A DNA stretch of 63,861 nucleotides, filler included, from Eubacteriales bacterium (GTDB lineage Bacteria; Bacillota; Clostridia; Oscillospirales; CAG-382): assembly GCA_045636665.1 (NCBI GenBank). It is 10 parts of 10 records of this genome, joined end to end, with 100 filler letters (N's around TTAATTAATTAA, not from the genome) between each part and the next. Parts side by side here need not be neighbours in the genome. Positions count along the whole stretch, not along the records: positions 37,400 to 41,405 come from JAZTXY010000097.1; 9 more parts are not named here. The stretch is one strand, 5' to 3'. This document shows, in pieces, positions 37,300 to 39,055 of the stretch. Below the pieces are notes generated by a model. The model was not told the origin of the DNA. It ran no database searches and worked only from the letters and a program-made list of their open reading frames with translations. The position numbers and the translations under genes are program-made. Every line of letters begins with the position of its first letter. The first letter of the stretch is position 1.

Positions 37300-37400
37300 N
37301 NNNNNNNNNNNNNNNNNNNNNNNNNNNNNNNNNNNNNNNNNNNTTAATTAATTAANNNNNNNNNNNNNNNNNNNNNNNNNNNNNNNNNNNNNNNNNNNNT

Positions 37401-37556
37401 CCGCGATAGCGGAATGTAATCAGTTCGCCTTGCGAACTGTATGTCATCAAGGCGGTAGCCTTGTATGTTCTTTTTGCGGCTTAATTACATACGCAACATT
37501 CGTTGCAATTACATACAAAGCTTTGCTTTGATTACATTCACACCTCAGGTGTGATT
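37401..37556. repeat. Repeat+hairpin array A (GWATGTAATC-type / RATTACATWC units)
   Basis: Left units at 37412, 37439, 37463; complementary right units at 37483, 37507, 37530; short variable hairpins between units. Confidence 0.85.
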
Positions 37557-37580
37557 TAATACATCAAGCACAAAAGGGTA

Positions 37581-37600
37581 GAATCCTCCTGCCCCTGCCA
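37581..37600 (+). other. Isolated tRNA 3'-end fragment (tRNA-Trp-like), candidate att-site remnant
   Basis: GAATCCTCCTGCCCCTGCCA resembles the T-arm/acceptor/CCA end of Bacillota tRNA-Trp; no 5' half upstream; terminator follows immediately. Confidence 0.65.
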
Positions 37601-37634
37601 GAAAAACCGACAAGTTTCGACTTGTCGGTTTTTC
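37601..37634 (+). terminator. Intrinsic terminator after the tRNA-like 3' end
   Basis: GAAAAACCGACAAGT-TTCG-ACTTGTCGGTTTTTC. Confidence 0.85.
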
Positions 37635-37637
37635 AAC

Positions 37638-37804
37638 TAAGTGCGCCTTTCGGCGCGTGAAGTTTGCTTCGCAAGTGAAGTTGTCCTATGGCCGGTGAAG
37701 TTTCTGCGGAAGTGAGCGGCGCACTTAACTTCACTTTGTGCCACAGCACAAAACTTCATTATGCCTTATGCATAACTTCACATCGGCGTTAGCCGATACT
37801 TCAC
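37638..37804. repeat. Repeat+hairpin array B (GTGAAGT / ACTTCAC units)
   Basis: GTGAAGT at 37657, 37675, 37695 (plus GTGAG 37712); ACTTCA(C/T) at 37728, 37753, 37775, 37798; short variable hairpins between units. Confidence 0.85.
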
Positions 37805-37844
37805 TAAAAAATGCAATACTTCAAATTCACACAAAACCATAAAC

Positions 37845-37875
37845 AAAAAACCGACTTGATTGACAAGTCGGTTTT
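37845..37875 (-). terminator. Terminator of the dockerin-protein gene
   Basis: AAAAAACCGACTTG-ATTGA-CAAGTCGGTTTT. Confidence 0.75.
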
Positions 37876-37881
37876 ACTGTT

Positions 37882-39012
37882 TTATTCGCCTATTTCGTAG
37901 GTGCCCAAAATTGCGCGCTTGATGAGGATGTAGTCAAACTTTTCGGTTTCGCCGTTTTTATTTACGTCAGCGGCGATGGTTTGGAAATCGCCCATATCGT
38001 AGGTACCGAGGATATCGCGCTTAACGAGGATATAGTCGTATTTATCAACCGCGTTATCATCGTTTACGTCGCCTGCGGAATAGAAAATCTCTTTTTGAAG
38101 CTTTGTTGTATTTTCGATGAGCTTGGTTGCGATTTCATCGCCGTTGTTTGCATTGCCCTTGTAGATTTGAGCAAGCTGTTCCTTGTAATGCGATCTGTCG
38201 ACGATAACAAGGCCGTGGTCGATATAGCTTTCGCATTTAGCGTTGTTCCAGTCGGGCTTACGAGCGTTTTTAACGCCGAGAATGAGTTCGATGAAGTTGT
38301 TGTAATCCTTGAAGCGGTCGCTTACCTTACCGACGTTAAAGCAGCCTGCGGAGCTGTAGGAATCGGGGGTAATGCCGTCAACGGGAGCACCGCTCCATTG
38401 GGTGCGCGCGTGGATATTGATATACTTCGAGGTGCTTACGTAATTGGTGGTTTCGGTGCAACGCATTACGGGAACCTGAGTACCGTCGTCCTCAACCCAG
38501 AGTGCCGCATAGCTTCCGCCGTGGTTGATGGATTGGATGTTGTAAATGCCGTCAAGCACGGTAGGTACGGGATCGCCCTCGTTGGTTTCGGGGTTACGGG
38601 GGTTATCGGGGAGAGTCGAATTGTTTTCGGATTCGTATACTACGGTAGGAACGCCGTCCTTAAGCTGGATTACCGCGCAGTAGGATGCCAAACGGTATTT
38701 GCTGTAATCGCTGTAGGTTTTATCATCAACGTTATCGCTGCAGCCGTCGAAGAAGAAAACGATGCTTTTGCCGTCCTTGAGATTACGTTCAACACGGTGG
38801 TTGTTGGTTTCGGAAAGCAGGTGGTAGCGCATCATAACGTCAACGTAGGTTGCGTGATATTTGTTGGAAATAATTGTGGACTTAACACCCTGAACGTCTT
38901 TTTCGGTGAACCAGGTATCCTCGGCAGAGGCATTGATGCCGACGGGAATCGCCGTGAGCAACATGCAAGCTGCGAGAAGCATTTTCAAGAATCGTTTTGT
39001 GACTTTTTTCAT
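37882..39012 (-). CDS. Secreted protein with a C-terminal dockerin and a putative His/Cys (L,D-transpeptidase-like) catalytic domain
   Basis: Signal peptide ASA; duplicated dockerin loops GDVNDDNAVDKYDYILVKR / ADVNKNGETEKFDYILIKR; INIH...SSAGCF. Confidence 0.78.
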   Translation of the reverse strand: MKKVTKRFLKMLLAACMLLTAIPVGINASAEDTWFTEKDVQGVKSTIISNKYHATYVDVMMRYHLLSETNNHRVERNLKDGKSIVFFFDGCSDNVDDKTYSDYSKYRLASYCAVIQLKDGVPTVVYESENNSTLPDNPRNPETNEGDPVPTVLDGIYNIQSINHGGSYAALWVEDDGTQVPVMRCTETTNYVSTSKYINIHARTQWSGAPVDGITPDSYSSAGCFNVGKVSDRFKDYNNFIELILGVKNARKPDWNNAKCESYIDHGLVIVDRSHYKEQLAQIYKGNANNGDEIATKLIENTTKLQKEIFYSAGDVNDDNAVDKYDYILVKRDILGTYDMGDFQTIAADVNKNGETEKFDYILIKRAILGTYEIGE

Positions 39013-39055
39013 AGCCAACCTCCAAGTTTTTGTTTTTACATAATATGCTGAATTT

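Follow-up and report, generated by a model that had tools for sequence, protein, structure and literature searches.

REP, REPIN and BIME sequences are extragenic, multi-copy, mosaic hairpin repeats that lie behind genes or terminators, occur as inverted pairs and sometimes in tandem, and are thought to act as single-stranded DNA (ssDNA). For the BIMEs of E. coli, supercoil-absorbing or nucleoid- and gyrase-binding roles have been proposed. Gut-1 (Rfam RF01706) is a gut-only RNA candidate of unknown function, rated "RNA? Y" on covariation (Weinberg et al. 2010, PMC2864571), which stands in Rfam as a small RNA with one arm on one strand. In ribosomal RNA (rRNA) genes, intervening sequences (IVS) with an S23p or 23S_rRNA_IVP open reading frame (ORF) combine a PF05635 gene with stem-forming inverted sequence beside or inside a stable-RNA gene, and are regarded as selfish (PMC4990558, PMC11270868); the IVS of Coxiella has been called a selfish element (PMC4990558), and PF05635 has been described as an uncharacterised domain on insertions in rRNA genes (PMC11270868). 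The same domain resembles Avd of diversity-generating retroelements (DGRs; PMC10053308), a protein required for cDNA synthesis from the DGR RNA template (10.1101/2023.10.23.563531). Here we analyse array B, a ladder of short words and small hairpins at 37638-37804 of a 63.9-kb window (the whole stretch of DNA analysed), and identify it as a copy of the Gut-1 repeat family that has no gene and is slightly decayed. The family is found in uncultured gut Clostridia (metagenome-assembled genomes, MAGs, of the Oscillospiraceae/Acutalibacteraceae type). Array B itself is an ordinary family member, and the family has been without explanation since 2010. New here is the observation that PF05635 genes lie directly downstream of Gut-1-type ladders.

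The window consists of 10 contigs joined by linkers (N44, TTAATTAATTAA, N44), one at 37300-37399 and the others at eight other places; because it chains separate contigs, the DNA on the two sides of a linker should not be taken for true neighbours. The source assembly (1.8 Mb, 139 contigs, 80% complete) is referred to as G000 and its contigs as C14, C123, C124 and so on, while G-numbers and L-numbers denote the genomes and loci compared. Array B is carried on a 4,006-bp contig whose first base falls inside a neighbouring module, array A.

Array B and the Gut-1 Repeat Family

The left arm of array B (37634-37706, plus strand) opens with CAAC and the 5' box X with its local partner X', and continues with three GTGAAGT words (37657-37663, 37675-37681 and 37695-37701) and their hairpins. 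Two of the left-arm hairpins are perfect (37643-37656 and 37664-37674), the one at 37682-37694 contains one mismatch and one G.T pair, and that at 37702-37711 is a 3-bp stem. The centre (37711-37727, plus strand) is composed of GTGAG (37711-37715) followed by the box X'' (GGCGCACTTA, 37718-37727). In the right arm (37728-37804, plus strand) four reverse-complement words, ACTTCAC at 37728-37734, 37775-37781 and 37798-37804 and ACTTCAT at 37753-37759, alternate with three perfect hairpins of 7, 5 and 6 bp (37735-37752, 37760-37774 and 37782-37797, respectively) with loops of the GNNA type or related to it. On the minus strand this arm reads as another Gut-1-like array, placed head-on to the first. 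The 5' box itself, TAAGTGCGCC (37638-37647), is complementary both to the nearby GGCGC of X' (37652-37656) and, over a greater length, to X''. Counting either strand, six of the nine exact GTGAAGT sites of the window fall within this 148-nt stretch, where 4.7 +/- 2.0 are expected in the whole 63.9 kb. The interval 37600-37880, which includes two flanking terminator hairpins, has folding z scores of -8.9 and -9.9 on the two strands. The word-and-hairpin ladder that a first-pass annotation had reported at 37638-37804 is present there, and far above chance.

The interval 37634-37706 matches the Gut-1 model over positions 1-77 with 46.8 bits (E 3.6e-8; cmscan at a permissive threshold). This lies below the gathering cut-off of RF01706, 50 bits, a level that no Rfam family attains anywhere in the window; homologous copies in relatives reach 91.4 bits. 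The left arm thereby spans all 77 positions of the model, and the Gut-1 layout of three small hairpins with a UGAAAU-type linker is reproduced by three GUGAAGU words with hairpins between them, a likeness that extends to the gut-bacterial habitat. Of 101 related genomes, 72 match RF01706 and 59 do so over the cut-off; within the genus the proportion is 55 of 60. A single genome can hold as many as 37 matches, which are frequently tandem or located at contig ends. Under the names Gut-1 and RF01706, to which this absence from print is limited, a literature search returned nothing on function; besides the 2010 study, the names recur in a 2026 methods paper on RNA structure prediction. The first-pass annotation would have given up its element class if already catalogued; it is partly catalogued, as Rfam Gut-1. 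In contrast to the Rfam entry, however, the real unit adds an inverted second arm, a long-range box, a terminator-like hairpin and a tail, its word varies by locus, and it is located mostly behind transfer RNA (tRNA) genes. None of these features figures in the accessible part of PMC2864571.

A grammar scan of the whole assembly, in which a repeated word must be followed by its repeated reverse complement, gave 17 matches, against none in each of three shuffled genomes. By eye, 12 of these are true modules and five are coding repeats; array A was missed by the scan, and its inclusion brings the genome total to 13 modules. Their words comprise GTGAAGT, ATGAAG, GATGATATAC, GTTATGA, ATGTAAT and GCGATAT, and in every module the right-arm word is the reverse complement of the left-arm word. 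Since a count from a two-arm scan is circular on this point, half-arrays were also searched alone: all seven real ones possess a matching second arm with the same word, and two further matches were coding repeats. Thirteen modules with at least six words and a single grammar, together with the seven two-armed half-arrays, bear out the earlier idea of an element class defined by shape. The description of arrays A and B as unrelated needs correcting: both belong to one modular family.

The full copies in relatives follow a common layout. T1, made of a G, an A-run, a hairpin and a T-run, is followed by CAAC, a word-like start and box X with its partner X', and then by three word-plus-hairpin repeats; next come GTGAG and X'', the reverse-complement word with its hairpin three or four times, and a tail. 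Array B conforms to this layout, with GTGAAGT replacing GTGAAAT throughout, word-like start and centre included. Its T1 (37601-37633) has a 9-bp hairpin, resembles a bidirectional terminator and moves with the module. Its tail (37805-37840, plus strand) is shortened: the copy in genome G057 matches to about 37837, and other copies have longer tails. Behind tRNA-Glu on contig C14, this genome has a paralogue of array B.

Conserved Pairings and Folding Energies

The pairings were evaluated in a covariation alignment of 10 B-type copies. In the seven local hairpins 18 of 36 pairs have changed on both sides, and the right-arm helices 8-10 contain three, four and two doubly changed pairs. The local X:X' pairing is 100% paired, with two of its five pairs doubly changed, and the long-range X:X'' is paired in 99% of cells, with two of 10 pairs doubly changed. 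As X:X'' is kept as well as X:X', both alternative folds of the 5' box are preserved, in agreement with the mutually exclusive pairings first proposed for it. Covariation supports the small hairpins and both 5'-box pairings. Between subfamilies the word shifts on both arms together, with some hairpins unchanged; such a joint change argues for constraint or for a homogenising process tying the words of a module. Calculated as RNA, the hairpins plus ladder amount to -49.9 kcal/mol, the hairpins alone to -31.1 and the long-range fold to -37.7 kcal/mol; the corresponding DNA values are -33.4, -23.8 and -18.9 kcal/mol.

Mosaicism and Polymorphism of the Unit

Among species-representative MAGs, 42 stretches contain the 23-nt centre motif without any change; their titles name Acutalibacteraceae, Oscillospiraceae, Faecousia, Eubacteriales or Clostridia, many of them from ruminant guts. 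The closest of the 42 is 96.5% identical to array B, and 27 full-length copies have a median pairwise identity of 0.92. Among the compared genomes, the copy in G058 is 97% identical, its likeness being confined to 37629-37810, and that in G057 is 90% identical over 37598-37837, identical T1 included. The closest orthologues of the dockerin gene flanking array B are at most 82% identical.

At the orthologous dockerin loci the module is of another type or missing. G005 has a tRNA-Tyr, a T1 and a GTGAAAT-type module; G003 has only the gene's own terminator hairpin (T2), with unrelated DNA upstream and no module; in G027 no module lies beside the gene end. The locus is therefore polymorphic for module presence and type. 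Contigs of four public DNA runs (small shares, 88% likeness) accumulate on 37601-37801. Metagenome contigs break at 37598-37602, 37630-37640 and 37807-37810 into other tRNA ends, T1 hairpins, boxes and tails, contigs in three runs skip 37678-37717/22, and in one contig of 819 nt array A is present but T1 and array B are missing. Since both the orthologous loci and the metagenome contigs differ in parts, the unit is mosaic as well as polymorphic. In practical terms, such units break metagenome assemblies at tRNA loci.

The tRNA Junction

The suspected association with tRNA genes proved correct. Half of the 12 scan-found modules of this genome lie 34-87 nt downstream of a tRNA. In relatives, a tRNA 3' end of one of 13 types lies 31-45 nt upstream of 36 of 64 modules, and 22 of 43 B-type copies sit behind a tRNA, a further five having no recognisable start and two too little upstream DNA. 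The base after CCA is G, followed by an A-run, in 34 of the 36 tRNA-linked modules, against a G in only one of 24 module-less tRNAs of this genome; the left boundary of the unit is accordingly fixed between CCA and G, the right one being approximate. Identical T1 hairpins follow tRNA-Ser, Gln, Tyr, Pro, Arg, Leu and Trp genes in other species and, because the tRNAs differ, T1 belongs to the unit. Upstream of array B, a 25-nt remnant of a tRNA 3' end (37576-37600, plus strand) runs from a T-loop-like sequence to CCA and, compared by eye with loci L142, L155 and L171, is nearest to the ends of tRNA-Trp genes found in front of B-type copies elsewhere. ARAGORN detected no tRNA gene in the whole window.

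Modules without a complete tRNA have comparable remnants in front of them at L107, L118, L143 and L111, a pattern expected from DNA insertion at a tRNA 3' end. L107, L118 and L143 come from three species, yet in each the module, of B type or C14 type, stands behind the end of one and the same coding region. This end looks like a recombinase C-terminus and ends in a tRNA-like ...CCACCAG, which suggests an integrated element displacing the tRNA end together with the module. Canonical tails (e.g., L012:1690-1760) include a TTCGAAT stretch and end in ...ACA before the G of the next unit, loosely like a tRNA T-loop and 3' end.

PF05635 Genes Downstream of the Ladders

At the C14 locus, module and downstream small gene travel together in relatives. 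The gene encodes a PF05635 (23S_rRNA_IVP) protein (E 4e-28), whose closest solved relative is 2rld (E 2e-30; five chains in the entry). In G000 all three PF05635 genes (C14:58372-58689, C123:15573-15893 and C124:18581-18895) come immediately after a ladder, in the canonical orientation. Two of these gene-bearing modules use the word of a gene-less module of this locus: the C14 module has the word of array B, the C124 module that of array A. For the best 20 PF05635 genes of four relatives, a strict finder placed a ladder upstream in 12 and inspection by eye in 19; a looser rule found it in 15 of the 20, and also in 99 of 3000 random windows. When the most frequent 6-mer is counted in the 300 nt before PF05635 genes across the order, the median is 5.5, whereas each of two control windows, one downstream and one far upstream, gives 3. 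Of 31 genomes from other families, 13 have both Gut-1 and PF05635, three have Gut-1 only, two PF05635 only and 13 neither (Fisher p 2.4e-4, from genomes that are kin and not independent). At L189, L199, L201, L204 and L196 the last word directly precedes the ribosome-binding site and ATG of the gene; thus, in some gene-bearing units the ladder would lie in the mRNA leader. Short-word arrays regularly stand in front of PF05635 genes (loci L188-L237), and in this genus they take the form of hairpin ladders. In other families of the order, PF05635 genes often stand behind tandem heptamers or octamers without hairpins, and the word sometimes recurs after the gene.

The arrangement recalls the rRNA IVS but departs from it in several respects. 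Ladder modules lie behind tRNA genes or gene ends and not inside rRNA helices, both of their inverted arms are upstream of the gene and made of words and mini-hairpins, and most copies carry no gene, array B having no ORF. The PF05635 gene of the fuller copies also resembles Avd (PMC10053308), but reverse transcriptase is unlinked to the ladders: PF00078 is not present in G000, and was found in 16 of 61 genus genomes and in two of the nine genomes with 25 or more Gut-1 matches. Retro-copying primed by a tRNA, in which the left end of the unit would correspond to the U-tract end of a minus-strand terminator, was also considered and is unsupported by this distribution. A literature search with the terms PF05635, 23S rRNA IVP, S23p and Avd-like found nothing on word arrays upstream of such genes. 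"23S rRNA IVP" is listed among the domains in a figure of a CRISPR-discovery study that also covers CRISPR-array-associated proteins (PMC10910872), and word arrays beside PF05635 genes might have been called as CRISPR arrays. Unlike a CRISPR array, with repeats of 20 nt or more and unique spacers of similar length, the ladders have repeats of 6-10 nt, and their spacers are self-complementary hairpins of 9-20 nt.

Hairpin Loops and Wobble Pairs

Perfect hairpins make up 41 of 58 unique spacers in the left arm and 70 of 113 in the right arm, compared with 1.25 and 7.5 in shuffles. Wobble pairs are not enriched: the B-subfamily hairpins contain 804 Watson-Crick cells, 10 G.T and 12 A.C, and the wider spacer set three G.T versus three A.C. 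In the rungs, that is, a word paired with its reverse-complement word, the plus strand has 35 G.T cells versus two A.C, an excess with few events behind it. The 113 loops include 66 triloops and 38 tetraloops, and C-G is almost always the closing pair. The loops read TNC or TNNC in the Gut-1 sense, which on the opposite strand becomes GNA or GNNA. Of the triloops, 46 are TNC and none is GNA in that sense, and the tetraloops include no GNRA and no UNCG, with 17 of 38 being GNRA in antisense. The favoured loops lie on opposite strands in the two arms. C-GNA-G and C-GNNA-G are the consensus of DNA mini-hairpins of extraordinary stability; the RNA counterparts are far weaker, with a melting temperature of 39 C (PMC13037366, PMC3201870). 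The ladder has the loop and closing-pair rule of these structures (GC-GNA-GC and GC-GNNA-GC) on the strand opposite to Gut-1. Those mini-hairpins are single and located at phage or plasmid origins, as ssDNA priming sites, whereas the ladder hairpins form chromosomal intergenic arrays with a word between them.

A consensus scan found no promoter in the module or its tail, and the promoter of the neighbouring tRNA matches the consensus at 12 of 12 positions. A public run listing contained no RNA run with the array B stretch, which says nothing on expression either way. Taken together, the loop, wobble, promoter and terminator points lean towards ssDNA without settling the question, and RNA annotation of these units may name the wrong strand or the wrong molecule.

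Possible Role and Origin of the Ladder Units

We see an even chance that the ladder serves the PF05635 protein as a multivalent scaffold and belongs to a selfish unit placed behind stable-RNA genes. Locus-specific words set between fast-folding mini-hairpins would provide several binding sites for an oligomeric four-helix-bundle protein of this family, and protein and ladder together would constitute a selfish element lodging beside stable-RNA genes, as the rRNA intervening sequences do. Gene-less ladders such as array B would then be non-autonomous derivatives that could use protein made elsewhere; the C14 module of this genome shares the word of array B and bears the gene. The multivalent protein-binding scaffold envisaged by the first-pass annotation thus gains a candidate partner, encoded behind the gene-bearing copies, to which it is tied by genomic adjacency.

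Several observations weigh against a scaffold for PF05635 in a selfish unit. The link between gene and ladder is one of adjacency only, and PF05635 has no known catalytic activity. Only three of the 13 modules in this genome bear the gene, and for four modules with the word GTTATGA the 80%-complete assembly contains no gene associated with that word. Across the order a ladder lies upstream of nine of 28 PF05635 genes by script (about 14 of 28 by eye), and 11 of the 28 follow simple tandem words that lack hairpins. In gene-less copies the tail, considered as a leftover of a deleted PF05635 region, shows no similarity to the DNA after PF05635 genes and so lends no support to an origin by simple deletion. 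Covariation barely tests the rungs: the three are 87-93% paired, with one doubly changed pair in 21, and a register test did not tell the alignments apart, in part because the word parser picks an overlapping centre site. As to mobility, terminal inverted repeats and a target duplication were not recognised by eye, no exact filled/empty pair was obtained, and phage and plasmid collections gave no match. Finally, array B differs from its subfamily consensus at 17 positions, several of which weaken the stems at 37682-37694 and 37760-37774, and because of these lost stem pairs this copy may be inert.

A bolder version of the scaffold hypothesis, possible but in our opinion doubtful, is that the Gut-1 ladder and its Avd-like PF05635 protein are an undescribed selfish element that homes to the CCA end of tRNA genes, brings its own terminator and leaves gene-less, non-autonomous offspring; the oligomeric four-helix-bundle protein would recognise the word of its locus, presented repeatedly between DNA (or RNA) mini-hairpins. 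If true, it would provide a first function both for an orphan Rfam family and for the widespread 23S_rRNA_IVP family. The adjacency of PF05635, the exact start after CCA and the DNA mini-hairpin loop rule make the matter testable at the bench.

Alternatively, the unit could give rise to a structured small RNA, produced by read-through from the tRNA or an upstream gene or within the PF05635 mRNA as its leader. This RNA would act independently of mobility, perhaps as a ribonucleoprotein with the Avd-like protein or as a switch between the two 5'-box pairings. The published covariation rating points this way (PMC2864571), as do the covarying stems with both 5'-box pairings kept, the presumed position of the ladder in some mRNA leaders, the plus-strand excess of G.T over A.C in the rungs, few events though it represents, and the need for Avd in making cDNA from an RNA template (10.1101/2023.10.23.563531). 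We nevertheless find a small RNA rather unlikely, as the module starts only behind a U-run and its terminator-like hairpin, has no promoter of its own by consensus scan, and is built of hairpins that do not tolerate wobble. Moreover, its loops obey a DNA rule on the strand opposite to Gut-1, with none of the UNCG or GNRA type in the Gut-1 sense, the favoured loops of the two arms lie on opposite strands, and RNA forms of such hairpins are far less stable (PMC13037366, PMC3201870). The DNA-type loops and the lack of G.T enrichment would suit a parasitic ssDNA repeat of the REP/REPIN or miniature inverted-repeat transposable element kind, moved in trans by an HUH (RAYT or IS200-type) or other transposase acting on hairpins in ssDNA, with PF05635 as cargo or neighbour. 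The ladder units are likewise extragenic, multi-copy, hairpin-forming and mosaic, and near-identical across species. In REPs, however, the palindrome is conserved and the flanks vary, whereas in the ladders the hairpins vary and the 7-nt linker word is constant, and neither terminal repeats nor a target duplication were seen. The transposase is also wanting: in five genomes searched there is no intact Y1/HUH (RAYT-type) gene, and the PF01797 matches are truncated IS200-like fragments of 83-86 aa in two of them (G000:C130:5131-5244 and G011:C50:10922-11068), away from the modules and not beside any ladder. None occurs in G041, G018 and G060, each with 35-37 Gut-1 matches. A parasitic ssDNA repeat is therefore unlikely in our judgement, and the earlier suggestion of a substrate for an ssDNA transposase is not upheld by the five genomes searched.

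Other scenarios dispense with a selfish unit altogether. A trailer of tRNA genes kept by the host as a terminator, insulator, supercoil absorber or nucleoid or gyrase site, and spread by recombination rather than transposition, would account for the constant place of the unit behind tRNA genes, for its terminator-like T1, for the frequent location between convergent transcription units, as at this locus and at L129-L131, and for retention in 55 of 60 genus genomes. It is hard to reconcile with the 24 of about 30 listed CCA-ended tRNA genes in this genome that have plain terminators and no module, with the 28 of 64 modules that have no tRNA detected upstream, or with the orthologous loci, which differ in module presence and type. 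Likewise, 97% identity of the module across species versus 82% for the flanking gene argues for transfer rather than vertical maintenance, and we hold a host-kept trailer to be quite improbable. Highly improbable, in our view, is a functionless by-product of replication template switching at quasi-palindromes, a process that would perfect hairpins and homogenise inverted words. The perfect stems without wobble preference, the concerted change of words on both arms and the variable number of rungs among copies are what it would produce, but it leaves unexplained the strand-specific loop rule (no GNA in the Gut-1 sense, 46 of 66 triloops TNC), as well as an architecture that stays the same from family to family within the order, the exact junction between CCA and G, and the PF05635 adjacency.

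Flanking Features and Minor Observations

Upstream of array B, array A (37400-37565, plus strand) has the word ATGTAAT with its reverse complement ATTACAT, and its left end is lost at the contig start. Its word family recurs in C124 of G000, between tRNA-Phe and a PF05635 gene, and a metagenome contig continues array A to the left with a C124-like start. Downstream, T2 (37846-37876) is the terminator hairpin of a dockerin type I domain gene (37882-39018, minus strand; PF00404, E 3.6e-10). T2 is host DNA outside the module, since G003 has it beside the orthologous gene with no module there. T1 and T2 are both CCGAC...GTCGG hairpins, a likeness judged coincidental because G057 has an identical T1 without any such T2. 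Each of the two is a complete hairpin, and insertion of the module into a terminator loop is accordingly not seen at this locus.

A composite transposon was considered for three convergent Gut-1 pairs 1-6 kb apart, and rejected: each consists of two ordinary tRNA-plus-module units flanking ordinary genes. At L129, L130 and L131, tRNA-plus-module pairs face each other over 0.7-5.5 kb of ordinary genes, and in one of these cases a PF05635 gene adjoins the inner module.

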